Assembly (NCBI GenBank): GCA_016214745.1
Contig: JACRNW010000006.1
Location: 13,367-77,366 of the forward strand
DNA: 64,000 nt
Direction of reading: 5' to 3'
Source: Candidatus Falkowbacteria bacterium
Lineage (GTDB): Bacteria; Patescibacteriota; Patescibacteriia; XYB2-FULL-38-15
The position numbers and the translations under genes are program-made. Below, one piece after another: positions 12,338 through 34,913 of this stretch. The notes under the pieces were generated by a model. It saw only the letters and a list, made by a program, of their open reading frames with translations. It had not been told where the DNA came from and searched no databases. Each line of letters begins with the position of its first letter. Position 1 is the stretch's first letter.

Positions 12338-13234
12338 TTATATTTTAAAAATAACAACTCTATTTCTTCCCGCCAGGTCTTGTTTAATCTTTATTTTCGC
12401 GGCGGGAAAACGGCGCTTGATTAGTTTTGTGATAGATTTTTTTTGCGATGGGTCAATTTCGAAGAAACATGAAATATGAAACTTAAAACTTGAAACTTGA
12501 AAATTTTTGATTTGTTTTAGGAGTTGGCGGTAGTAATTGAGGCCGTCAGAACCGCCGTCCAGAGCTTGCTTCGGTTCATATTTTTTAATTTCCGGTTGAG
12601 TATGTCGCCACTGCGTGGTAGTGAGGTATGGCAAATTGGCAACGATTATTAAGTTGGAGTAGCGCCCGTAAGGGCGCGCTTGTGACGCAGCCTCACGGCT
12701 GCTATTCCGCGATGGAATAGTCATCAATGGCTCAAGCAAATTGCCGTGTAGCAAAGTAACGGCGACTTTATGATGAAGAATATTTTTTCGCGCTACTTTT
12801 AACGCCGCCGCCGAAATTTCTGTGGCGAAGATTTTTGCTTTGGGAAGATGGTGGGCGAGTGTTATGGCGATGGCGCCGCTTCCGGTTCCGACATCAATGA
12901 TTGCAGTTGGATTTTTATCTATTGCGGCTTCAACTAATGTTTCCGTTTCGGGGCGGGGGATTAGAACATTTTTATCAACAAAAAAATCCAGGCCGTAAAA
13001 ATATTTGTGGTCCGTGAGGTAGGCGATTGGTTCATGCCGTACTCGCCGAGCAATAAGTTTTTTAAATTTAGCCAGTTGTCCCGCGGCCAATTTTTTTTTA
13101 GGATGCGCGTACAAAAATTCTTTTGGTTTTTTTGTAACAAAAGCTAAAAGAATCTCTGCATCCAAGGCAGGGGAGGAAATTTTATTTTTTTGTAAAATTT
13201 TTATTGCCTCAATGAGCGATTGCTTGATAGTCAT
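12338..13234 (-). CDS. prmC: release factor glutamine methyltransferase PrmC/HemK, carrying a roughly 20-aa in-frame GC-rich insert
   Basis: DVGTGSGAIAITLA (SAM motif I) and IVANLPYL (NPPY-type motif). I place the start at MTIKQSL because the upstream in-frame codons lie inside the terminator hairpin of the neighbouring islet gene. The insert is MTIPSRNSSREAASQARPYGRYS, encoded by hairpin-forming GC-rich DNA at 12655-12728. Confidence 0.75.
   Translation of the reverse strand: MTIKQSLIEAIKILQKNKISSPALDAEILLAFVTKKPKEFLYAHPKKKLAAGQLAKFKKLIARRVRHEPIAYLTDHKYFYGLDFFVDKNVLIPRPETETLVEAAIDKNPTAIIDVGTGSGAIAITLAHHLPKAKIFATEISAAALKVARKNILHHKVAVTLLHGNLLEPLMTIPSRNSSREAASQARPYGRYSNLIIVANLPYLTTTQWRHTQPEIKKYEPKQALDGGSDGLNYYRQLLKQIKNFQVSSFKFHISCFFEIDPSQKKSITKLIKRRFPAAKIKIKQDLAGRNRVVIFKI
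12655..12728. repeat. In-frame GC-rich palindromic mini-insert inside prmC
   Basis: Hairpins agcgccc-gtaa-gggcgcg and ctattcc-gcgat-ggaatag lie between the conserved HemK motifs, where homologs have about 7 residues. Confidence 0.55.
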
Positions 13235-13316
13235 AGCGTTATTATAACATAAAAAAAGGCCTGAGCACTTGCGCACTCAGGCACCTCCTTGGAATTCGTT
13301 CCGCGGTGGGCTACGT

Positions 13317-13853
13317 TCAGGTGGGCTTGCCGGCGGTGGGCTCGACGACCTCCAGCTCCTCCTCGACGACCTCGGCTTCCGGAGCGTCAGCTTCTTCCGT
13401 GGCGGCTTTCGTGGCCTCCGCTCGGCTCTCGGTGACACAAGCGTCGAGCTCACGGTAGGGGAAAGCGTTGACGAGGTTGCTCCACGTGACGGGGTGACCG
13501 TCGGAGTCTTCCGTGTGGAGGAACTCCTCGAAAGCCGTCACAGTTTCATCGTGAGGGATTCGCTTGAACAGCTCGTCGACGAACAACTTGAAGTCCTTGG
13601 TGGCCGCCTCGAAGAGAGTCAGATTGTCCTCCACGCTTCCATGCCAGCCGGCGTAGAAGGGTCCGACGATCTTCGCGAAGCCGTGCAGTCCGACGAGACG
13701 CTTCAGGCCGGCGACGAAGCTCGGCTTCAGGCCCTCGCCGGGGATGGCCAGGATCTTGGCCACGATGTCCTCGACCCTCAGGAACCCCGTCAGGTAAGCC
13801 TTCTCCAGGCCGTCCGCAAGAAATACCTTCGCCATTTCCCGTCTGTCTTCCAT
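13317..13853 (-). CDS. GC-rich islet protein A (hypothetical, acidic C-terminal tail)
   Basis: MEDRREMAKVF... of about 178 aa. It has its own promoter (TTGACA-17-TAATGT at about 13918-13946, minus strand), an SD (gaaggaaaacc) before the ATG, and a hairpin plus T-run terminator (13259-13285, minus). GC content is far above that of neighbouring genes. Confidence 0.5.
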   Translation of the reverse strand: MEDRREMAKVFLADGLEKAYLTGFLRVEDIVAKILAIPGEGLKPSFVAGLKRLVGLHGFAKIVGPFYAGWHGSVEDNLTLFEAATKDFKLFVDELFKRIPHDETVTAFEEFLHTEDSDGHPVTWSNLVNAFPYRELDACVTESRAEATKAATEEADAPEAEVVEEELEVVEPTAGKPT

Positions 13854-13917
13854 GGTTTTCCTTCGCTTGCCTTTGCCCGCGACACGCGGGGAATTTTGGC
13901 AAGACCTTTCTACCCGC

Positions 13918-13946
13918 ACATTAGTTTAAAAAATTTTGTTTGTCAA
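13918..13946 (-). promoter_or_regulatory. sigma70-type promoter of islet gene A
   Basis: Minus-strand read cTTGACAaacaaaattttttaaacTAATGT: 17-nt spacer, placed about 60 nt upstream of the ATG. Confidence 0.45.
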
Positions 13947-14122
13947 GATAAAAAAAGAGCCCGCGGACTGCCGGGAGGGGGTGGGAGGTCTAAGACCTTT
14001 CCACGCGGCAGTACGCGGGCTTCGCGCCGGGGCTCTCCTGTGGTTTCGGGAGGGGCGCGAATTTGGACGGAGAACGAGCGGGTTAGGAACTCGCAGCTCT
14101 CACGTTGTTCGGGGGTGGACTA

Positions 14123-14335
14123 CTACTGGTCGGTGCCGTGAAGGCGGTATTCGCGCGCCTTCCGCCTGGCTCCTTCGGCTTGGCGGCGTTCCTCCTCGTC
14201 GTCGGGGATGAACCCGTCGGCGCGGCGATGATTCGGCCGACGCCTCTCGATCACGAACGGCCCTCCGTCCGGAATGATGCGAGATCCGTCGCGCGAGAGA
14301 GGCGTGCCATCGTGCATGAAAACTCCCTTTGACAT
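14123..14335 (-). CDS. small basic GC-rich protein (about 70 aa)
   Basis: The SD GAGGAGG lies 6 nt upstream of ATG: MSKGVFMHDGTPLSRDGSRIIPDGGPFVIERRRPNHRRADGFIPDDEEERRQAEGARRKAREYRLHGTDQ. Confidence 0.3.
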   Translation of the reverse strand: MSKGVFMHDGTPLSRDGSRIIPDGGPFVIERRRPNHRRADGFIPDDEEERRQAEGARRKAREYRLHGTDQ

Positions 14336-14500
14336 CCCTGTCCTCCTCAACCTTCCCTACGATCTCTATTGACAACTCGTCCCGTCCATCGGGCCGAGAT
14401 GTAGGGCCACCTTCCTTGCGTTTTGACGCGTGTCAACGGCGCAAAGCCACCCTGTTTGTTGATTTCATAATATTACAAAAAGATTAATTTGTCAACCCCC

Positions 14501-14529
14501 TTGACAAATTTTTTAATTATGATAGAGTA
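14501..14529 (+). promoter_or_regulatory. sigma70-type promoter (TTGACA, 16-nt spacer, TGaTAGAGT extended -10) overlapped by the inverted repeat ttgtcaa-ccccc-ttgacaa
   Basis: Read directly from the sequence. No protein-coding ORF follows it. Confidence 0.4.
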
Positions 14530-14534
14530 TTACG

Positions 14535-14855
14535 GCAAGGGTAATGGGGAGTCCTGTTCGGCTGATGCCAGCAGCGCACTGGCGTCATGGGTAATCTTTT
14601 TTCATCCCAAATCTAGAGCCCCTGGTTGGCGAACAGCGCGTTGATGCGCGGCCGACCTTGAGGCAAAGGACCCACGGGGTGGTCAGCAGGAACCCGGTCC
14701 GCGAGCTGCCCGTGAAGCAGACGTGGACTGAAATCTCCCCCGCGTTTTCGATCCTCCAAATCCGCTTTTAGCGGGTAAGGAGGTCACCCTTCTTTGCACA
14801 CCGCTACGTTTCGCGTTGTGCCTGTCGGTCGAACACCTGTTCGGCCGACTCTTTT
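14535..14855 (+). ncRNA. Candidate structured GC-rich non-coding RNA of about 320 nt (identity unknown)
   Basis: A promoter at 14501-14529, no ORF longer than 10 codons, and a strong terminator at 14818-14855 (gtcggtcgaacacctgttcggccgac + tctttttt). About 60% GC in an AT-rich genome. I could not match tmRNA, RNase P or SRP signatures by eye. Confidence 0.3.
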
Positions 14856-14880
14856 TTATATCAAAATTTATATCAAAAAA

Positions 14881-15083
14881 CCGGCCTTGCGGCCAGTCAA
14901 TTTTCCCCTCTTAAGGTAAGAGGGGCTGGGCCTGCCCGCAACGCCAGCAACCTGCCCGCTAATGCAAGCATAGCGTTGCAGGCGGGGCTGGCTTGCGTGG
15001 CGGGCGGGGGCGTTATGAGCGGCGATTTTAAAATCCACGGTTCATAACGCCACCCAACCCCCCCTTATCTTAAGGGGAGGGGT
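14881..15083. repeat. GC-rich composite element G1, copy X (flanked by ccccttaagg-type mini-hairpins)
   Basis: The roughly 130-bp core (cccctcttaaggtaagaggggctgggcctgcccgcaacgccagcaacctgcccgctaatgcaagcatagcgttgcaggcggggctggcttgcgtggcgggcgggggcgttatga...) is nearly identical to the reverse complement of 33070-33200. The last hairpin encodes the prfA C-terminus and stop. Confidence 0.8.
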
Positions 15084-21212: not shown

Positions 21213-22259
21213 ATGACGCATGCGGAGTTACAAAAATTCATAGCATTTTTGATGAAGCGCGGCTGGACAGTTTTTGCGCCGGAAAAACGGCCGGGAGAGG
21301 TTGTTTATGCCGAAGTGCAAGACGCCGCCAAAGTTAAGTTGATTTCCGAACCGCCGCTGCATTCATTTAAAAGATTTTTGGTTCCGCCCGAGGAAACGCT
21401 TTTTGAGTACGAAAAAGACAAACTGAACGAGGTTCGCGATGCGGGAATAAAAATTCCGAAGCAAGTGATTTTTGGCATTAATCCGGTTGATCTGAAAGCG
21501 ATTGTAATGTTAAATCAAATTTTTGAGCGAGATCCCTGGTATCAGGAACGGATGCGGCGGACGCTTATCATCGGCCAGAGTTTAATCCCGGCCGATGTTG
21601 AACATAATATTTTTCAAATTAAATACGAAGAAGACATTTTGGAACATCTGCAGTTTGATATTTTTTTGGAAGTGCAGCCCCTCACCCCTGCCCGCAACGC
21701 CAGCGCTAGCGTGGCAGGCGGGCCAACCCTCTCCCCAAAGGGGAGAGGGGCAGAGTATTTTGTCTACACCGGTTCGGAAGAAGGGCAAAGCAGTTTGGAA
21801 GATTTCGGTTATGAAGATTATGAGCACATCGCTTTCGCCGGACCGATCAGGGAAGAGGGTTTTGATCCCATGATGGTAAAATACCGCGACGCGCTCCGAA
21901 AAACTTACAAAAAAGAAATTTGGGAAAATGATATCGGCGCGCGTTGTATTGAGTGCGGCAAATGCACGCTTATTTGCCCGACCTGTTTTTGTTTTGATAT
22001 GAAAGATCAGCCGGATTTAGTGGGCGATGGCGGGGTGCGCAAGCGCGCTTGGAGCGCTTGTTTTTATAATGATTTTTCCGAAGTCGCCGGCGGGCATAAA
22101 TTTTTAAAAACTACGGCCGAGCGGATTCATTTTTGGTATTATCATAAATTTGTCCGAATTCCGGACCAGATTCAGATTATGGGTTGCGTCGGCTGTGGCC
22201 GGTGCGCCAAGGTCTGTCCGGTGAACATAAATATTTTTAAAGTTCTGGCGGCATTGTGA
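21213..22259 (+). CDS. hydB: [NiFe]-hydrogenase group 3b beta-like subunit (4Fe-4S; AsrA/HydB-like), carrying an in-frame GC-rich insert
   Basis: Two Cys clusters ([16 protein letters not shown]; [13 protein letters not shown]). The segment [26 protein letters not shown] is encoded by the G1-related GC-rich hairpin DNA at 21676-21752. Confidence 0.65.
21676..21752. repeat. In-frame GC-rich element inside hydB (a shortened G1 derivative plus the mini-hairpin ctccccaaaggggagagg)
   Basis: Shares cctgcccgcaacgccagc with G1 copies at 14925 and 33160. The local GC jump is visible in the sequence. Confidence 0.6.
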
Positions 22260-22272
22260 TTGCGATACGAAT

Positions 22273-22662
22273 ATGCCAATACATACGAATGATACGAATA
22301 AAATCATTTATAAAGAACTTTCTTATAAGATTAATGGTATTTTATTCAGGGCGCATAATGAGTTGGGTCGGTATTGTCGCGAAAGGCAGTACGCCGACAA
22401 ATTGGAAGAACTTTGGAAAGAAAATAAGATTAATTACAAAAGAGAAAAGAAAATGCTTGGCGATTTAGTGACAGGTAACATTCCCGATTTTTGTATAGAA
22501 GACAAGATATTGTTAGAAATTAAGGCAAAAAGTTTTATTGTCAAAGAAGATTATTATCAAATACAGCGGTATTTGCAGACAAATAAAATTAAGTTGGGGC
22601 TATTAGTCAATTTTAGAAATCGTTATCTCAAACCTATTCGTATCATTCGCATTAATTCGTAA
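22273..22662 (+). CDS. GxxExxY family protein (PD-(D/E)xK-like small protein)
   Basis: 129 aa matching the GxxExxY family pattern ([22 protein letters not shown]...[45 protein letters not shown]). Confidence 0.7.
22285..22650 (+). mobile_element. GxxExxY gene cassette bounded by 16-bp inverted repeats that overlap the gene's own first and last codons
   Basis: acgaatgatacgaata at 22285-22300 against tattcgtatcattcgc at 22635-22650 (15 of 16 complementary). It sits between hydB and the gamma subunit. A related cargo-less palindrome lies at 3708-3785. Confidence 0.4.
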
Positions 22663-22707: not shown

Positions 22708-23520
22708 ATGCATAACCCATATCAAACCACGACTGTTAAAATTCTAAAAATTGAGGACGAGGGTTCGCGGTCTAAACTTTTTACACTTGAAGCGCCACGC
22801 GACTTTACGGTTCGGAGCGGCCAGTTTGTGGAAATTTCTCTGCCGGGATATGGCGAAGCGCCGATTTCTCTTTGTTCTGATCCGTCAGTCAAAAATAAAT
22901 TTGAGTTGTGCGTTCGAAAAGCCGGAATGGTGACGGGCGCCCTGCACGCCTTGAAAGTGGGCGATAAAGTCGGGGTGCGCGGGCCGTACGGCCGGCCGTT
23001 TCCCGCGGAAATTGGTAAACAAAGAAATTTGCTTTTGGTGGCCGGTGGTTTGGGTTTGGAACCGTTGCGTCCCGCGATTTGGGAAATCATGAAAAACCGC
23101 GAGCAGTATAAAAAAGTCCAAATTTTTTACGGTGCTTGCGACGAAAATGATTTGCTTTTTACAAAAGATTATGATGAGTTGAAGAAAAAAATTGATCTTC
23201 ATATAACATTAGACAAACCAAAAGGCCTTCAAACTCCGGTGGCTTGCGGCACGGGCGTGGTGACAACGCTTTTTGATCACGTTAAACTTTACGAAAATCC
23301 CGTAGCATTTTTGTGCGGCCCGCCCGTGATGTATAAATTTGTTATCAAAAAATTAAAAGAATTAGCTTTTTTGGACAGTGATATATATCTATCGCTTGAG
23401 CGGCGGATGCATTGCGGCGTCGGCGTCTGCAATCATTGCGCCGTCGGAAGTTTTTTTGTCTGCCAGGACGGTCCGGTTTTTTCCTGGGCCGAGTTGAAAG
23501 ATATAAAAGGAGCGATTTAA
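22708..23520 (+). CDS. hydG: [NiFe]-hydrogenase group 3b gamma-like subunit (FAD/NAD-binding oxidoreductase with a 2Fe-2S C-terminal region, PyrK-like)
   Basis: LVAGGLGLEPLRP (NAD-binding) and the C-terminal Cys cluster CGVGVCNHCAVG...C. Confidence 0.65.
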   Translation: MHNPYQTTTVKILKIEDEGSRSKLFTLEAPRDFTVRSGQFVEISLPGYGEAPISLCSDPSVKNKFELCVRKAGMVTGALHALKVGDKVGVRGPYGRPFPAEIGKQRNLLLVAGGLGLEPLRPAIWEIMKNREQYKKVQIFYGACDENDLLFTKDYDELKKKIDLHITLDKPKGLQTPVACGTGVVTTLFDHVKLYENPVAFLCGPPVMYKFVIKKLKELAFLDSDIYLSLERRMHCGVGVCNHCAVGSFFVCQDGPVFSWAELKDIKGAI

Positions 23521-23541: not shown

Positions 23542-24813
23542 GTGTGCTTAACCATTCCCGGTAAAGTTATAGAAATTAAAGATCAAAATGCCTTACTCAA
23601 AACATCAAGTGGAGTAAGGCAAATTAATATTGGGCTCATATCACGCGTAAAAGTAGGTGATTGGCTTCTTGCTTCAATTGATTTAGCGGTCAAAAAAATA
23701 AAAGCGAAAGATGCGGAGGAAATTTTAGAATTACTCAGCGGAAAAAAAATAACAGATACAAATAACGTTAGTTTTAAATTTAGAGAAATTCTAAAAAATG
23801 CTCAAATTGGAGATTTAACAAAAGAAGAAATTATTTATTTACTTAAAACGGAAGGGCAAGAAAAGGAAGTATTATTTTCCGAGGCAGATGCGGTGTGTAA
23901 AGAAAATTTAAAAGATTTTATTTGCTTACATGCGATTGTTGAATTTTCAAATTATTGCGCAAATAATTGTTTTTATTGTGGGCTCCGGAGCGAGAATAAA
24001 ACTGTTGTCCGTTATAGAATGAGTATTTCGGAAATTGTTAAAGTCGCAAATGAAGCGGTCAACAAAATCGGCTATAAGATGATTGTGCTCCAGTCGGGCG
24101 CGGATATGCAATACACAGATGAAATGTTGGTTGAAATTATTAAAAAAATTAAAGCCAAAAGTCGGTGTTTTATTTTTATGAGTGTGGGGGAGCGAAGCGT
24201 TCAATGTTACAAAAAAATGAAAAAAGCGGGGGCGAATGGCGTTTTATTTAGATTTGAAACTTCAAATCCGAAACTTTATAATATTTTACATCCTAAAAAT
24301 ACTTTAAAGGGTGGGCTTCAAAATCGGTTGGCTCTTTTGCGAGAGATAAAAAAAATGGGATATTATATTTCATCAGGTCCGATTATAGGATTGCCCGGCC
24401 AGACTCTAGAAGATTTAGCAGATGATATTTTGATGATGAAAAAATTGAGCGTTGGCATGGCTTCAATGGGCCCGTTTATTCCGTGTGACGGGACACCCTT
24501 AGCGGGCGAGTCGCACGGCGATGTTGAACTTTCTTTAAAGACAATTGCTGCTTCTCGTCTTTTGATACCGAAGGCGCGCATTCCGGTAACAACAGCACTC
24601 GAAACACTTGATCCGCAAAACGCGCGTAAACGAGGATTGCAAAGTGGAGCCAATTCTTTAATGTTTAATTTGACTCCGGCGAAATATCGCAGTAAATACA
24701 AAATTTATCCAAATAAATTTCACGGGCGAGATAAAGATTTGGAAGATTTTGCCCTATACAAGGGAAAGGAGAGTTGGGAAATGCTCACAAGAGAATTTAA
24801 AAAATATATTTGA
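23542..24813 (+). CDS. HypC-like domain fused to a HydE-like radical SAM enzyme
   Basis: GTG start. Residues 1-70 read MCLTIPGKVIEIKDQNALLKTSSGVRQINIGLISRVKVGDWLLASIDLAVKKIKAKDAEEILELL (HypC/HupF signature MC.IP with Cys2). The radical-SAM core HAIVEFSNYCANNCFYCGLRSEN closely resembles HydE/BioB-family CxxxCxxC regions. Confidence 0.7.
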   Translation: MCLTIPGKVIEIKDQNALLKTSSGVRQINIGLISRVKVGDWLLASIDLAVKKIKAKDAEEILELLSGKKITDTNNVSFKFREILKNAQIGDLTKEEIIYLLKTEGQEKEVLFSEADAVCKENLKDFICLHAIVEFSNYCANNCFYCGLRSENKTVVRYRMSISEIVKVANEAVNKIGYKMIVLQSGADMQYTDEMLVEIIKKIKAKSRCFIFMSVGERSVQCYKKMKKAGANGVLFRFETSNPKLYNILHPKNTLKGGLQNRLALLREIKKMGYYISSGPIIGLPGQTLEDLADDILMMKKLSVGMASMGPFIPCDGTPLAGESHGDVELSLKTIAASRLLIPKARIPVTTALETLDPQNARKRGLQSGANSLMFNLTPAKYRSKYKIYPNKFHGRDKDLEDFALYKGKESWEMLTREFKKYI

Positions 24814-24815
24814 TT

Positions 24816-26189
24816 ATGGAAATAATTAATCAAGAAAAAATTTTTGATATTTTGGAAAAAACAAAAGACGCGAGCCAGAGCCGTTTTGAAGAAATAATTA
24901 ATAAAGCGAAAAAGATAAAAAGTTTAGATTTAGAAGAGGTGGGCATTTTGATAAATATTAGCGATGAAAAATTGATACAGAAAATGCAACAGGCGGCGCG
25001 CGAGATAAAAATGGCAATTTACGGGCCACGCCTGGTTTTGTTTGCCCCACTTTATGTTTCAAGTTTTTGTATCAACGACTGTGAGTATTGCGGTTTTCAT
25101 TGCCGGAATGCGACGCCGCGGAAAAAATTATCTTTGGATGAAGTGCGGCAGCAGGTGGAAATTTTGGAAGACATGGGGCACAAGAGATTGCTTTTGGAAT
25201 TTGGTGAAGATCCAAAAGAAAATCCGATTGATTATGTAACAGGTGTAATTAAAACAATTTATGCTACTAAAAAGGATCGCGGTTCAATTCGTAGAGTTAA
25301 TGTTAATATCGCCGCAACGAGCGTGGAAAATTATAAAAAATTAAAAGAAGCGGGGATCGGTACTTATCAACTTTTCCAAGAAACTTATCATCGGCCGACT
25401 TACGAAAAACTTCATTGCGGTCCAAAGGCGGATTACGATCGACAGATTACGGCCATGGATCACGCTTTTGCGGGAGGAATTGATGATTTGGGAATCGGTG
25501 TGCTGTTTGGTCTTTATGATTGGCGTTTTGAGGTTTTAAGTTTAGCGGCACACGCAGATTATATGGAGAAAACTTTTGGCGTCGGGCCGCACACTATTTC
25601 CGTCCCGCGCTTCCGTCCCGCGCCGACAGTTGATTTTAAATCAGAACACGAAGTCAGCGACAATGATTTTTTGAAACTTATCGCCATTTTACGTTTAGCA
25701 GTGCCATATACCGGAATGATTATGTCTACTCGCGAATCGCCGGAAATAAGGCGCCAGGCGTTTGAAATAGGAATTTCGCAAACGAGCGCGGGATCGCGTA
25801 CAACTCCCGGGGGATATAATGAAAAAAATAAAAAAGAAGAATTAGCTCAGTTCAATTTAAGTGATCACCGCACTTTAGATGAAATCGTCCGTGATATTTG
25901 TAAATTGGGATATTTACCGAGTTTTTGTACAGCCTGTTATCGAAGCGGCCGGACTGGCGATGACTTTATGAAGTATGCCAAAGCGGGAACGATACAAAAT
26001 TTTTGTCAACCAAACGCCATTTCAACTTTCAAGGAGTATCTTCTGGATTACGCAACGCCCGAAACGCGCGAGGTGGGGGAAGAAGTGATTAAAAGAGAAA
26101 TTAAAAAAATAAAAGACGCGCGGGTGCGTCAAAAGTTAGAAGAAAAACTCTCTCTGATAGAAAAAGGAAAACGCGATTTGTATTTTTAG
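24816..26189 (+). CDS. HydG/ThiH-family radical SAM tyrosine-lyase-like protein with a HydG-type C-terminal CX2CX22C motif
   Basis: N-terminal cluster FAPLYVSSFCINDCEYCGF. The C-terminal FCTACYRSGRTGDDFMKYAKAGTIQNFC has exactly 22 residues between the second and third Cys. Start placed at ATG 24816 (MEIINQ). Confidence 0.7.
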   Translation: MEIINQEKIFDILEKTKDASQSRFEEIINKAKKIKSLDLEEVGILINISDEKLIQKMQQAAREIKMAIYGPRLVLFAPLYVSSFCINDCEYCGFHCRNATPRKKLSLDEVRQQVEILEDMGHKRLLLEFGEDPKENPIDYVTGVIKTIYATKKDRGSIRRVNVNIAATSVENYKKLKEAGIGTYQLFQETYHRPTYEKLHCGPKADYDRQITAMDHAFAGGIDDLGIGVLFGLYDWRFEVLSLAAHADYMEKTFGVGPHTISVPRFRPAPTVDFKSEHEVSDNDFLKLIAILRLAVPYTGMIMSTRESPEIRRQAFEIGISQTSAGSRTTPGGYNEKNKKEELAQFNLSDHRTLDEIVRDICKLGYLPSFCTACYRSGRTGDDFMKYAKAGTIQNFCQPNAISTFKEYLLDYATPETREVGEEVIKREIKKIKDARVRQKLEEKLSLIEKGKRDLYF

Positions 26190-31108: not shown

Positions 31109-31867
31109 ATGAATAAACCCACACTCGCTATTGCCAGTATGACTTGTTGCGAGGGTTGTCAGGTGGAGATTTTAAATTTAGGAAAACGACTTCTGGATCT
31201 TTTCCAAGTTTTTGATTTGGGAAATTTTTCCTGGGCCGAGGAAAAAAAGGAGAGGCCGAAATACGACGTGGCGGTGATCGAGGGAACTCCGCTCACGCAT
31301 GAGGATGTAAGATATTTGAAAGAATTGCGGAGAAAATCAAAAATTTTGGTTGCCATCGGAAGCTGTGCGCATTTGGGCGGAGTTCAGGAAATAAAAAATT
31401 ACGCCGAGAAAAATAAAAATGAAAAAGTAAAATACGTTTACCCAAAATATCAGCGGATACAAAATCCAACGGTCGTGCCGCTTTGGAAAGTGGTAAAAGT
31501 TGATTATACCGTGCCGTGCTGTCCGATTGATAAAGATGAATTTTTCCGGGTGATTTCCGATATTGCTTTTGGCCGCGCGCCAAAAATTCCTTTACGTCCA
31601 GTTTGCTTTGAATGCCAGACGAGCGGATACGAGTGTCTTTTGCAAAAAGGTCAGCCGTGTATGGGGCCAATTACGATCGGCGGCTGTAAAGCGATTTGTC
31701 TTCGGAGTAAAAGATTTTGTTATGGCTGCCGCGGGCCGCTTCCCGGAGCCGGGCCGCAGATTAAAAAACACTTGCGAAATATTGAAAAATTAGTTGGGAA
31801 AAAATATCTTCGCGAAATTATGGAAACCTACGGCGCGGAAGATGATTTTTTGCGAATTGAGAAATAA
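31109..31867 (+). CDS. hydD: [NiFe]-hydrogenase small (delta-like) subunit
   Basis: TCCEGC (proximal cluster), GSCAHLGG and the distal Cys motifs. Confidence 0.7.
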   Translation: MNKPTLAIASMTCCEGCQVEILNLGKRLLDLFQVFDLGNFSWAEEKKERPKYDVAVIEGTPLTHEDVRYLKELRRKSKILVAIGSCAHLGGVQEIKNYAEKNKNEKVKYVYPKYQRIQNPTVVPLWKVVKVDYTVPCCPIDKDEFFRVISDIAFGRAPKIPLRPVCFECQTSGYECLLQKGQPCMGPITIGGCKAICLRSKRFCYGCRGPLPGAGPQIKKHLRNIEKLVGKKYLREIMETYGAEDDFLRIEK

Positions 31868-31890
31868 GATATTTTGTTTGATATTTCAAC

Positions 31891-31970
31891 CGGAATCCCG
31901 ACGAAAGTCGGAAAATTGCCCAGCTTTCGCTGGGAGTCCAGAAAAAACGGAATCCCGACGAAAGTCGGGT
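31891..31970. repeat. GC-rich double-hairpin unit G2, 1.5 copies
   Basis: ggaatcccgacgaaagtcgg...gcccagctttcgctgggagtccagaaaaaacggaatcccgacgaaagtcggg. Compare 7044-7097. Confidence 0.7.
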
Positions 31971-32027
31971 TTTTGATTTCTCCCCTTAAGGTAAGGGGAG
32001 ATTAAGAGGGGTGAAATGGGGTTGACA

Positions 32028-32056
32028 AACTTGCTAAAATGTGTTATTCTAAATTG
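32028..32056 (+). promoter_or_regulatory. sigma70-type promoter (gTTGACAaac-17-TATTCT) preceding a hairpin-dense roughly 300-nt leader of islet gene D
   Basis: Read from the sequence. The leader at 32060-32360 contains at least 6 GC-rich hairpins (ctccccgaaggggagag, ctccctttaaaaaagggagag, cccccctttatcaagggggga and others). Confidence 0.35.
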
Positions 32057-32365
32057 TTAGTAAATAGTTCTTTTAAAGGTAAAACCCCCTCACTCCAACT
32101 CTCTCCCCGAAGGGGAGAGAGAGTTTCCTCGCCCCACTGGGGAGAGGACTAAGGTGAGGGGGCAACAAGTTCCCAGTTTTCTTTTGGCGGTTTTAAATCC
32201 CTCTCTAACTCTCCCTTTAAAAAAGGGAGAGAAATTCCCCCCTTTATCAAGGGGGGATTAAGGGGGATTTGCGAAGACCCCCAAAAGAAGGCTGGGAATT
32301 TCTCTCGGCCAGAGACAGCAACGTAGTCGCCGCGGGCGACCAGTTGCGAAGAAGGAGAACGAGTC

Positions 32366-32869
32366 ATGAGCGACGAGTTCAGGATGACGACGGGACAGGC
32401 GCATGAGTTGGCGATGGCCTTCGGTCGCAACGGCTGGACCAACGCCGACGTGAAGAAGATGTCTGAGGGCGATCTGCTCGCCCGACTGCTACCGGTCATC
32501 CGGGGGCAGGCCGACGTGAAGAAGCCGGAAATCCCGACCGAGATGACCGTCGGCGGCCGCGTCTACGAGATCCTCTCCTTCCTCCGGGAGGAGGACAACG
32601 GATTCGTCCGCGGCGACGTGATGGTCTCCCGGGCGAAGGAGCTCGGCGCCAACCTCGGCAAGGAGGACTGCGAGTTCCTCCTCACCCACCAGGACGAGAT
32701 TCCGCCCGCGTTGCGGGGCAAAGTCGTCTTCGTCTTCCCGGACTTGCGGCGCCCGGGCGACCGCGAGCACGTCGCGTACCTCCACTGGGACGACGGCGGC
32801 TGGTACCGGCACTGGTACTGGCTCTCGGACGACTGGGACGGCTACGATCGTCTCCTTCGCCGCAAGTAG
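32366..32869 (+). CDS. GC-rich islet protein D (hypothetical, W/D-rich C-terminus)
   Basis: SD gaaggag before the ATG. 167 aa with high GC3. Shares a weak DCEF/FEEF-L-x-T motif with islet proteins A and C. Confidence 0.45.
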   Translation: MSDEFRMTTGQAHELAMAFGRNGWTNADVKKMSEGDLLARLLPVIRGQADVKKPEIPTEMTVGGRVYEILSFLREEDNGFVRGDVMVSRAKELGANLGKEDCEFLLTHQDEIPPALRGKVVFVFPDLRRPGDREHVAYLHWDDGGWYRHWYWLSDDWDGYDRLLRRK

Positions 32870-33018
32870 TGTCCTTGGACCCTGGGTAACTCGGCCCTTC
32901 AAACCGGCCTGGTCGCTCGGACCCTCGGACACTTTGTCCCTTGGCCCCACTTCAAATCCAATGCTTCACAAAGCAAAGGAAATGAAGCGGGGCCGTTTTT
33001 TTATTTAAGATTTTAGAT

Positions 33019-33207
33019 TTTCTCCCCTTAAGGTAAGGGGAGACTAAGAGGAGTTATGAACGGTGGATTTTAGTGCTACGGTTCATAACGCCCCCGCCCG
33101 CCACGCAAGCCAGCCCCGCCTGCAACGCTATGCTTGCATTAGCGGGCAGGTTGCTGGCGTTGCGGGCAGGCCCAGCCCCTCTTATCTTAAGAGGGGAGCG
33201 TTATACT
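33019..33207. repeat. GC-rich composite element G1, copy Y (inverted relative to copy X)
   Basis: The reverse complement of 33070-33200 matches 14908-15040 almost base for base. Confidence 0.8.
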
Positions 33208-33265
33208 GATTTTTTTATTTATCTTTTTATGATATAATGAATAAAATTAGTGAAGAGAATAAATT

Positions 33266-34558
33266 ATGAAAATAAAAATAAGCCACCTCGCCAAAATTGA
33301 AGGGCATGCCAGTTTTTTTGCCGATATGCTCGCCGGCGATATCAAAAACGCCAAATTGAAAATTACGATTGGCGCGCGTTTGATTGAATCAATAATTTTA
33401 AACCGCAATTATATTGAAACGCCGATTGTGACCTCGCGCATTTGTGGCATATGTTCGGTGGCGCACAATATCACAAGCATTAAAGCGATTGAAAACGCAT
33501 TAAAAATAAAAATAAATCCTCAAATTGAACGGCTCCGAAAAGTTTTGGTTTTGGCCGAGCCGATCCAAAGCCACGCGGCGCATCTTTTCTTTTTATCTTT
33601 ATCCGATTTTTTCAAATATGAAAGCGACATTGATTTGATGAAAAAATATCCCGACCTCGCCAAAAAAATTATTTTGATTCGCGATTTTGGAAATAAAATT
33701 AAAGATGTGGTCGGCGGAAGAGATATGCACATGATCGTGACGGAAATCGGCGGGTTTAGAAGAGTGCTTGATGATAAAATAATTCAAAAATTAATTGATG
33801 AAACTGAAGGCGTGCTAGAAGCCGCGATTGGCGTGGCGAAATTTTTTCGGGCGCTTGATTATCCGAAATATGAACGGAAAGTGGAATTTGCGGGACTCAC
33901 CGCGCCGCGCGAGTATGCTTTTTATGACGGCGTAATTGGATCAACTATGGAGTCGGCACGTCCCGTGAAAAAATTCTATAAAGAACTTGTGGAAAAGCAA
34001 ACTGCGGACGATCCGACCAAGCGCGCGCGGCACGAGGGCAAAAGTTTTATGGTCGGCGCGATTGCGCGGTTAAATTTGAGCCACAAATTTTTAAATCCCG
34101 AAGCGAAAAAGTTTTTGACTTTTTTTGACAAATCCCTCTCCAACTCTCCCTTTGGAAAAGGGAGAGGGTCTGTTCTCACGTTTAACACTTTTCACAATAT
34201 TTACGCCCAGTCTGTGGAGCTCGTTCATTGCGTTGAAGAGGCGCAAAAACTGCTCAAAGAATATTTGCGCGATAAATCAAGAAATTTGATGGTAAAATAT
34301 ACTTTAAAAAACGGCGAAGGACTTGGAGCGACCGAGGCGCCGCGCGGCACGCTTTATCATTATTATAAAATTGATAAATATGGTGTGATTCGCGCTTGTA
34401 ATATTATTACTCCGACGGCGCAATTTTTGGATAATTTGGAAAATGATTTGGAAAAATATTTGAATGAGGCAAAAATCAAAGATGAGAAGGATAGAAAATG
34501 GAAAATAAATATGATGGTGCGCGCGTACGATCCTTGTATGACATGTGCTACACACTAA
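33266..34558 (+). CDS. hydA: [NiFe]-hydrogenase large subunit (group 3-like, about 430 aa), ending exactly at the C-terminal His
   Basis: N-terminal RICGICSVAH (L1 motif) and C-terminal DPCMTCATH followed by stop, so there is no cleavable extension. An in-frame hairpin insert lies at 34133-34170. Confidence 0.8.
   Translation: MKIKISHLAKIEGHASFFADMLAGDIKNAKLKITIGARLIESIILNRNYIETPIVTSRICGICSVAHNITSIKAIENALKIKINPQIERLRKVLVLAEPIQSHAAHLFFLSLSDFFKYESDIDLMKKYPDLAKKIILIRDFGNKIKDVVGGRDMHMIVTEIGGFRRVLDDKIIQKLIDETEGVLEAAIGVAKFFRALDYPKYERKVEFAGLTAPREYAFYDGVIGSTMESARPVKKFYKELVEKQTADDPTKRARHEGKSFMVGAIARLNLSHKFLNPEAKKFLTFFDKSLSNSPFGKGRGSVLTFNTFHNIYAQSVELVHCVEEAQKLLKEYLRDKSRNLMVKYTLKNGEGLGATEAPRGTLYHYYKIDKYGVIRACNIITPTAQFLDNLENDLEKYLNEAKIKDEKDRKWKINMMVRAYDPCMTCATH
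34133..34170. repeat. In-frame GC mini-hairpin element inside the hydrogenase large subunit
   Basis: tccctctccaactctccctttggaaaagggagagggtc encodes SLSNSPFGKGRGS. It is near-identical to the intergenic copy at 32208-32231 (tccctctctaactctccctttaaaaaagggagag). Confidence 0.6.
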
Positions 34559-34655: not shown

Positions 34656-34913
34656 ATGCATGACCTTCACGAAGCAGACAGAATTTTAAAATTAGTTTTG
34701 GATCACGCCGAGCGCCATAAGTTGAAGTCGGTGACAAAAGTCGTTATCGGACTTGGCAGCGTGATTGAGCATGGTTCGGAAATAAATCCGGAAAATTTAA
34801 AATTTAATATTGGCGTGCTGGCGCGTCAAACTATGGCGGAAAACGCGGAAGTGGTGGTTAAAAAAATAAAAGCCGATACTTGGGAACTTGAAGAAATAGA
34901 GGGGGATAAATAA
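34656..34913 (+). CDS. hypA: HypA-like N-terminal domain protein (nickel-insertion factor) lacking the C-terminal zinc finger
   Basis: MHDLHEADRILKLVLDHAERHKLKSVTKVVIGLGSVIEHGSEINPENLKFNIG matches the HypA N-domain pattern (MHE-type N-terminus). 85 aa with no Cys; the ORF stops immediately before P1 copy 3. Confidence 0.5.
   Translation: MHDLHEADRILKLVLDHAERHKLKSVTKVVIGLGSVIEHGSEINPENLKFNIGVLARQTMAENAEVVVKKIKADTWELEEIEGDK

Follow-up and report, generated by a model that had tools for sequence, protein, structure and literature searches.

Results

A hypC-hydE fusion gene precedes hydG in a Falkowbacteria genome

The DNA analyzed here, referred to below as the window, is a stretch of 64,000 nucleotides (nt) from a Candidatus Falkowbacteria bacterium (assembly GCA_016214745.1, contig JACRNW010000006.1, positions 13,367 to 77,366 of the forward strand). 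It contains a gene on the + strand (23542..24813) that encodes a 423-residue protein with two domains. The first (residues 1-65, including Cys2; 23542..23736) is a HypC domain, PF01455, as found in the chaperones of [NiFe]-hydrogenase maturation; the second (residues 81-401; 23782..24744) is a radical S-adenosylmethionine (SAM) domain of the type of HydE (TIGR03956, structure matches), an enzyme known, to our knowledge, only from [FeFe]-hydrogenase assembly. The cluster-binding motif CX3CX2C (C139/C143/C146) is encoded at 23956-23979 (+). The next gene encodes HydG, and the genes of a [NiFe] hydrogenase and of the nickel-insertion protein HypA follow further downstream. An original prediction, made from the letters of the window, had called attention to the fusion; it mentioned neither the canonical HydG (24810-26189) nor HypA (34656-34913).

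The open reading frame (ORF) exists as it had been described, with a GTG start codon, an N-terminus reading MCLTIPGK and a cysteine in second position. The GTG at 23542 is the earliest usable start 3' of the preceding in-frame stop. The position of the start codon was retained in all of 77 related loci, 76 of which have an ATG directly before the cysteine codon, and the GTG of the window is at the equivalent position. Since this position is conserved and the preceding in-frame stop is close (a median of 5 codons from the start in the 77 loci), Cys2 belongs to the true N-terminus of the protein. Promoter-like sites in the window occurred at chance level only.

Pfam HupF_HypC (PF01455) matched residues 1-65 over its whole length (model positions 1-65 of 65) with 63.3 bits for a cut-off of 28.5, and the NCBIfam HypC model TIGR00074 gave 54.3 bits for a cut-off of 48. 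The N-terminus also matched the crystallized HypC of Thermococcus kodakarensis (2z1c) with an E value of 5e-8. In the second domain, Pfam Radical_SAM was placed on residues 133-296, and the HydE equivalog model TIGR03956 scored 281.4 bits on residues 90-394, above its cut-off of 254.6. Two other identities of the radical-SAM part were tried with NCBIfam models and failed, PylB with 144 bits (cut-off 348) and BioB with 100 bits (cut-off 225). The same ranking was obtained with the sequences of solved structures, namely 249 bits for Thermotoga maritima HydE, 90 for PylB and 59 for BioB. The HydE-like nature of the core, as first proposed, is therefore upheld.

An AlphaFold2 model computed with 53 members of the family reached a predicted local distance difference test score (pLDDT) of 90.3 and a predicted TM-score (pTM) of 0.89. 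In this model a beta-barrel plus helix is connected by a short linker to a TIM barrel, the weakest internal stretch (residues 61-70) being within the linker. Foldseek ranked T. maritima HydE first (target-normalized TM-score of 0.85-0.91, 42% identity), with a root mean square deviation of 1.2-2.1 Å for the best-matching entries; PylB and BioB ranked lower. Residues M1, C2, L3 and P6 and the three cysteines of CX3CX2C were invariant in 53 fused sequences.

The hydrogenase locus in the window

The gene that follows the fusion (24810..26189, +) encodes a HydG, the radical-SAM tyrosine lyase, with 600.1 bits for TIGR03955 (cut-off 312) and 587 bits over the full length of Thermoanaerobacter italicus HydG (4WCX); it has the C-terminal CX2CX22C motif of the auxiliary cluster. 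Its start is a TTG at 24810 or an ATG at 24816, so that it overlaps or abuts the stop codon of the fusion. Because of the overlap with the TTG, a single small change could join the two reading frames.

The window holds all four subunit genes of a group 3b-type hydrogenase and both cysteine motif pairs of its large subunit. A beta-like iron-sulfur subunit resembling sulfhydrogenase ShyB and AsrA (21213..22259, +; Pfam Fer4_22, 110.5 bits) and a gamma-like subunit with FAD/NAD-binding and iron-sulfur domains (22708..23520, +; FAD_binding_6, NAD_binding_1, DHODB_Fe-S_bind) are encoded directly upstream of the fusion. The best NCBIfam matches of the former were sulfhydrogenase beta subunits, below the equivalog cut-off, and the latter scored 248 bits for PRK08345 and 222 bits for ShyC. 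The small (delta) subunit (31109..31867, +; Oxidored_q6) and the large (alpha) subunit (33266..34558, +; NiFeSe_Hases) best matched sulfhydrogenase 2 delta and alpha, respectively, the latter model over its full length. All four subunits thus had their best, full-length matches among the sulfhydrogenase-2 or ShyA, ShyB, ShyC and ShyD models, with scores far below the cut-offs (e.g., 254.7 for a cut-off of 700). Enzymes of this type from bacteria of the candidate phyla radiation (CPR) have been placed in CPR-specific group 3b clades (PMC7304191). The large subunit has the motifs RICGICSVAH and DPCMTCATH, the latter directly followed by the stop codon, such that the protein ends exactly at the motif histidine with no C-terminal extension. 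HypA (34656..34913, +) has 85 residues and aligned with positions 1-71 of 112 of the Pfam HypA model (37.5 bits, cut-off 28.9).

The prediction had located the fusion inside a [NiFe]-hydrogenase locus. The association is real and, as detailed below, has been kept in several phyla, in various gene orders and with two classes of hydrogenase; in the window, however, insertions interrupt the locus. Unrelated genes separate the fusion from the small and large subunit genes, which are 6.3 and 8.5 kb downstream, and a PD-(D/E)XK nuclease-family gene (22273-22662; PDDEXK_3, 67.8 bits) is inserted between the beta and gamma genes, which are adjacent in most relatives. The closely related locus L006 (82% identical) has the same genes with most of these insertions missing.

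The small and large subunit genes of the window are themselves separated by a segment of about 1 kb, within 31870-33260. It is bracketed by 36-nt direct repeats (31977-32012 and 33019-33054) that are 94% identical and each contain a palindrome. An ORF of 167 codons in this segment (32366-32869) has a G+C content of 63-67%, compared with 43% for the window, and no Pfam match. From its sequence, the segment looks foreign or mobile and to have split the hydrogenase operon.

The HypC domain retains Cys2 and has lost a conserved histidine

The N-terminal domain had been called a textbook HypC. It does pass both HypC profiles and has the expected Cys2, but it lacks the conserved histidine that canonical HypC uses together with Cys2. 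Among 53 fused HypC domains, Cys2 and Pro6 were invariant, while the equivalent of E. coli His51 was lost in 52 and replaced by I, T, A, S or V.

Nine loci contain, in addition, a standalone canonical HypC gene directly beside the fusion, and all nine of the encoded proteins keep the histidine. These are found in L058 (3292-3522), L062 (5071-5301), L064 (10001-10231), L082 (5756-5986) and L078, with a histidine-rich C-terminal tail, and also in L019, L040, L059 and L065. The standalone gene is upstream of the fusion in all but L040; where it precedes the fusion in the same orientation (eight loci), it is followed directly by the fusion and not by hypD. Some lineages therefore hold both a free and a fused HypC.

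The HydE-type domain forms its own clade with a predicted change in the cyanide pocket

In a tree of the radical-SAM domains of 145 HydE representatives, all 22 fused representatives were found in one clade of 26. To compare functional residues, we used those assigned to T. maritima HydE in a mechanistic study (PMC11826987), and the numbers that follow are those of that protein. The equivalents of E58, K309, M224 and M291 (E134, K392, M306 and M374 in the window fusion) were conserved in both fused and unfused proteins, and the fused clade also keeps L157, V105 and T269.

Just four positions across the domain told fused and unfused proteins cleanly apart, and three of these (R54, T134 and R155) are reported to contact the product's cyanide ligands in T. 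maritima HydE (PMC11826987). R54 was replaced by histidine (H130 in the window fusion) in 23 of 23 fused proteins, whereas 113 of 119 unfused ones have arginine. T134 was replaced by phenylalanine (F212) in 19 of 23, compared with threonine in 104 of 119; and R155 by glycine (G233) in 20 of 23, compared with arginine in 104 of 119. Judging from these alignments, the pocket of the fused clade is remodeled at the cyanide-contacting positions, and this in a clade-specific manner.

Distribution of the fusion

The fusion belongs to a sizeable family. A word-indexed search gave more than 120 homologous clusters at 90% identity; among the clusters listed, which went down to 51% identity, Radical_SAM was present in all and HypC in all but one truncated entry. 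In an exhaustive search of 1.84 billion representatives, fused proteins had the highest scores, followed by ordinary HydE proteins of about 350 residues at 40-48% identity, and the HypC domain was present in 23 of the 154 representatives examined. The fusions come in two N-terminal flavors, MCLTIP and MCYAIP. In the species genomes of GTDB, 130 stretches were confirmed by tblastn, and the fusion is present in at least 80 of these species. Matches of about 1870 nt did not correspond to inserts in the fusion but to alignments spilling into HydG. Only unfused, canonical hydE was found in a plasmid collection.

According to record titles, most carriers are Patescibacteria, the others including Kuenenia, Brocadiaceae and other Planctomycetota, Methylomirabilis, and Thermodesulfobacteriota/Syntrophales. 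In public databases, the family is annotated as HydE, biotin synthase or HypC.

HydG and [NiFe]-hydrogenase genes are frequent neighbors of the fusion

For 80 of the 130 confirmed GTDB stretches, loci with 10-kb flanks were taken. ORFs were called in all loci, clustered and labeled with the window proteins as seeds; the simple caller mislabeled the fusion in a few loci with a high G+C content or frameshifts (L057, L076), and the HypC part of the L057 fusion appears to be disrupted.

HydG was encoded no more than two genes away from the fusion in 52 of 82 non-redundant loci, and a [NiFe] large subunit no more than 10 kb away in 45 of 82. In the 42 loci with flanks of 5 kb or more on each side, the large subunit was found in 26 and HydG in 20. 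The beta gene adjoins gamma and the fusion in 28 related loci. Both HydG cluster motifs (radical-SAM and CX2CX22C) were retained in 53 of 53 full-length HydG neighbors. Among the 44 neighboring large subunits of at least 400 residues, 43 have RxCGxC and 41 DPCxxCxxH; two of the three without a match to the latter are cut by a contig end, and that of L015 did not match the pattern.

Further evidence for the association came from the diversity of the arrangements. Depending on the lineage, the fusion and HydG are encoded between gamma and the small subunit, after the large subunit or divergently from the hydrogenase operon, and such varied orders suggest that closeness has been selected for, rather than inherited as a single ancestral arrangement. 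In L001/L009, the operon reads beta, gamma, fusion, HydG, DUF6390, small subunit, GNAT acetyltransferase, large subunit, ORF without assignment and HypA. In L038, L026 and L030 (Planctomycetota by record title) it consists of fusion, HydG, HypA, HypB, small and large subunits, the hydrogenase being group 1/2-like. In the MCYAIP subfamily, the large subunit is followed by HycI, a short HypA and the fusion (L092), or a NicO nickel transporter gene lies about 2.5 kb upstream of beta, gamma, small, large, HycI and fusion (L093). Thus, orthologous fusions do occur beside group 3b-like hydrogenases in relatives, and beside group 1/2-like enzymes as well.

Two independent proteins combine HypC, HydE and HydG in one chain, with all cluster motifs intact. 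One has 881 residues and comes from another Falkowbacteria genome (L081, 10001-12646). The other (P0126; 906 residues; L087, 10001-12721) belongs to the MCYAIP subfamily and is preceded by beta, gamma, small, large, HycI and a cyclic nucleotide monophosphate (cNMP)-binding protein.

The C-terminus of the large subunit varies in relation to the presence of a maturation protease. For 32 large subunits that end at the motif histidine, there was no protease gene in the locus, while large subunits with an extension of 7-14 residues had a protease or protease-like gene nearby in all but two cases.

Several additional neighbors were recorded. A 127-residue protein (cluster c28; L012, L013, L032, L052 and L072), with a sub-threshold match to HycI (17.2 bits, cut-off 23), accompanies, in these loci, only large subunits that extend 7-14 residues further and never those that stop at the motif histidine; it is possibly a minimal maturation endopeptidase. 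The short HypA of the window (34656-34913) has counterparts of 84-87 residues in L006, L009, L010, L053, L055, L060, L061 and L083, all of which keep the nickel-binding N-terminal end (MHD/MHE) and miss the zinc-finger half. No HypB was found near these mini-HypA genes in CPR loci; Planctomycetota loci have a full 114-residue HypA together with HypB. The DUF6390 protein of L001/L009 (12781-13455), encoded between HydG and the small subunit, shows at its C-terminus a weak, sub-threshold HypC-like match (21.4 bits, cut-off 28.5). Finally, in one CPR lineage group (L035, L047, L050, L056, L057, L069, L077, L080 and L085), the fusion adjoins a DJ-1/PfpI gene; the neighbors resemble type IV pilus genes by eye, and there is no hydrogenase or HydG within 10 kb.

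HypD, HypE, HypF and HydF are absent from the regions flanking the fusion

The original prediction had stated that no hypD, hypE, hypF, hypB or hydF is visible in the window. This was borne out by tblastn with E. coli and Cetobacterium seeds, which found none of the five in the 64 kb; nor did the Cetobacterium HydA seed match there. We extended the search to 1.35 Mb of flanking DNA (the window and 85 loci) and a further 94 kb, i.e., to about 1.4 Mb from more than 90 loci. The E. coli HypD, HypE and HypF seeds gave no match in this DNA, while the same procedure found HypA (10 loci), HypB (8 loci), HycI (4 loci) and HypC at 26-48% identity. This indicated that the sensitivity of the search was adequate. 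Two proteins of suggestive size were considered and rejected, as neither matched an E. coli Hyp seed: cluster c10 (718 residues), considered as a HypF, looks by eye like a PilB/GspE-type ATPase, and cluster c11 (364 residues), considered as a HypD, looks pilin-like.

The partners of [FeFe]-hydrogenase maturation were equally lacking from these flanks. HydF, searched with genuine seeds from Cetobacterium, gave no match, and neither did the H-cluster domain of [FeFe] hydrogenase with the HydA seed. The sole HydA match was marginal (54 residues, E value of 4e-4, to seed residues 218-267) and is taken to be to the ferredoxin-like part of the seed. Motif patterns for the H-cluster and HydF found nothing in the loci, whereas the same patterns found every motif in control proteins. 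As to control loci, hypC, hypD and hypE are adjacent in E. coli; in the Cetobacterium locus from the plasmid collection, which provided the HydF and HydA seeds, hydE, hydG and hydF are followed about 8 kb beyond by a group A [FeFe] hydrogenase.

Other features of the window

A second G+C-rich stretch of the window (about 13200-15000; 52-64% compared with 43% overall) contains only odd-looking ORFs (13269-14141 and 14100-14375) and had no match in Rfam. The sole Rfam match in the window was a ribosomal protein L10 leader (RF00557; 61105-61255; 47.7 bits, gathering score 44), far from the fusion locus.

Discussion

The machineries that mature [FeFe] and [NiFe] hydrogenases are thought to be separate. 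The family described here joins HydG, which makes CO and CN, and its partner HydE, physically and genetically, to the [NiFe] chaperone HypC, in hundreds of uncultivated anaerobes. In open-access papers and on bioRxiv, we came across no account of a HypC-HydE fusion or of HydE and HydG serving [NiFe] enzymes, in agreement with the statement in the prediction that no such fusion was known. PMC3812714 and PMC11216029 contain nothing on it, and PMC7304191 notes in passing that a family near the group 3b hydrogenases of CPR bacteria, "fam002", is homologous to HypC, with no mention of HydE, HydG or radical SAM. In the standard view, [NiFe] hydrogenases obtain their Fe(CN)2CO unit from the HypCDEF proteins, which are well conserved (PMC9431212), HypX supplying CO under aerobic conditions (PMC9431212, PMC6802093).

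A proposed route to the [NiFe] active site

The arrangement of domains and genes leads us to think, with modest confidence, that the fusion is probably a dedicated [NiFe]-hydrogenase maturase, which would deliver an iron unit derived from HydG through its HypC domain. More tentatively, we propose that it could be part of a second, HypDEF-independent route to the [NiFe] active site, a possibility that we regard as a real one though somewhat short of probable. In this route, CO and CN made from tyrosine by HydG would be processed by the remodeled HydE domain, handed to the fused HypC and inserted into the large subunit. We infer each chemical step, the hand-off to Cys2 and the dispensability of HypDEF from sequence and gene context.

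The reaction of HydG is established: tyrosine is cleaved, and an iron unit with CO and CN is built on the auxiliary cluster. As a first step, the HydG encoded by the next gene would carry out this reaction. The HydE-type domain would take up the resulting unit and strip its cysteine scaffold, using the SAM cluster, the E58/K309 relay and the two methionines that hold the iron. In canonical HydE, two arginines and a threonine hold the cyanides of the di-iron product. As all three residues are gone from the pocket of the fusion, its HydE-type domain would then probably release a mononuclear iron-carbonyl-cyanide species and not a dimer destined for HydF. The fused HypC would capture this species on Cys2 and deliver it to the apo-form of the large subunit, thus playing the carrier role of HydF in the [FeFe] system or of HypC-HypD in the classical Hyp pathway. 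The short HypA would add nickel. A final proteolytic step would not be needed in the lineage of the window, since the large subunit ends at the motif histidine.

The idea that radical-SAM chemistry of the [FeFe] type feeds a [NiFe] scaffold, which was at the heart of the original prediction, gains support from the adjacent HydG, the triple fusions, the distinct HydE clade and the predicted change in the pocket. Several observations weigh against our proposal. The synthon made by HydG is Fe(CO)2(CN), while the [NiFe] unit is Fe(CO)(CN)2, and no proposed step accounts for this difference in the CO/CN ratio. HydG is missing from a sizeable minority of loci: of the 42 loci with flanks of 5 kb or more on each side, 22 had no HydG within 10 kb. 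In 9 of these 22, [NiFe] genes are right beside the fusion (L083 being a tight operon without HydG), and neither HydG nor a hydrogenase was nearby in 13 of the 42. The hypD, hypE and hypF genes may be encoded elsewhere in the genomes that carry the fusion. The fused HypC may not be the final carrier, since some loci also have a canonical standalone HypC. In addition, the tree was a simple neighbor-joining one, crude and devoid of support values, and the organism labels of many metagenome-assembled genomes are unreliable.

Alternative functions

The alternative that best withstands the data, although we find it rather unlikely, is that the fusion is an accessory supplier to the classical Hyp pathway. 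HypD, HypE and HypF would be encoded elsewhere in the genome, and the fusion and HydG would provide only a portion of the iron unit. Of its components, the CO ligand is the most attractive candidate where oxygen is absent; the fused HypC would pass it to HypD or to a standalone HypC. This would avoid the mismatch in CO/CN stoichiometry and agree with the retention of HypA and HypB, both of the classical pathway, next to the fusion, as well as with the histidine-containing HypC encoded directly beside it in nine loci. Yet HypD, HypE and HypF were not found in about 1.4 Mb around the fusion, where HypA, HypB, the protease and standalone HypC do cluster, and in the E. coli control hypC, hypD and hypE are adjacent. 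It is also at odds with the loss, in the fused HypC, of the histidine that canonical HypC pairs with Cys2, and with the fact that many carriers are CPR bacteria, which have very small genomes.

It is improbable, in our opinion, that the HydE-like domain performs a different, HydG-independent chemistry, involving sulfur or another small ligand or acting on the large subunit, with HypC merely docking it onto the apo-form of the latter. The lack of HydG near the fusion in many loci, including tight operons, the systematic replacement of three pocket residues and a TIGR03956 score barely over the cut-off (281 compared with 255) would fit with this. It accounts poorly for the presence of HydG as a close neighbor in 52 of 82 loci and its fusion to the protein on two occasions, for the conservation of the radical-relay and iron-binding residues E58, K309, M224 and M291, and for the closeness of the domain to T. 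maritima HydE (42% identity; 1.2-2.1 Å for the best entries). Least probable by far, and already disfavored, is ordinary [FeFe] maturation for a hydrogenase encoded elsewhere, with an incidental HypC domain and [NiFe] neighborhood: the NCBI name of the protein ("[FeFe] hydrogenase H-cluster radical SAM maturase HydE") and the fully canonical HydG speak for it, but about 1.4 Mb of flanks contained no HydF, H-cluster motif or H-cluster-domain match (the control has both), the [NiFe] linkage is conserved across phyla and gene orders, the HypC domain is kept with an invariant Cys2, and the fused proteins group apart, in a clade whose pocket is remodeled.

Implications

If the proposed HydG-HydE-HypC route is correct, it would represent a new pathway of cofactor assembly and would link [FeFe] and [NiFe] maturation both mechanistically and evolutionarily. 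It would account for the maturation of hydrogenases with three small genes in CPR bacteria, whose genomes are reduced, and offer a compact gene set for the heterologous production of [NiFe] hydrogenases. Tyrosine would then be the source of the CO and CN ligands of [NiFe] enzymes in CPR bacteria and, going by record titles, in anammox Planctomycetota and Thermodesulfobacteriota. The source of CO in [NiFe] maturation under anoxic conditions is a long-standing question, which would still be addressed if the more modest CO-supply role turned out to be true.

Comparison with known maturation systems

The second domain shares with T. maritima HydE (TIGR03956) the radical-SAM TIM-barrel fold, the CX3CX2C motif, E58/K309, M224/M291 and the usual adjacency of HydG. 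It differs from it by the N-terminal HypC, by its placement in a clade of its own, by the replacement of R54/T134/R155 by H/F/G, and by its [NiFe] gene neighbors, neither HydF nor an [FeFe] hydrogenase having been found in the flanking DNA (about 1.4 Mb). With HypC, HybG and HupF, the first domain has in common the beta-barrel and C-terminal helix, the N-terminal Met-Cys, Pro6, the GDW motif and its encoding in [NiFe] operons. Those proteins are free and have about 80-90 residues, whereas the present domain is fused, as the N-terminus, to an enzyme of 340 residues and has lost His51 in 52 of 53 cases, and no HypD gene was found nearby.

The fusion would serve the same end as the HypCDEF system, the incorporation of an iron-carbonyl-cyanide unit into the [NiFe] large subunit, and some fusion lineages have retained HypA, HypB and the endopeptidase. 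In the classical pathway, however, HypF and HypE produce the cyanide from carbamoyl phosphate, and HypD is the site of assembly, whereas here the tyrosine-cleaving HydG sits locally in their place. A precedent for the architecture is the HydEF protein of Chlamydomonas reinhardtii, in which HydE is covalently joined to HydF, the GTPase scaffold that carries its product to the [FeFe] hydrogenase. In both cases HydE is joined to a carrier, that of its own product; in the present family this carrier would be HypC, and the target indicated by the genomic context is a [NiFe] hydrogenase.

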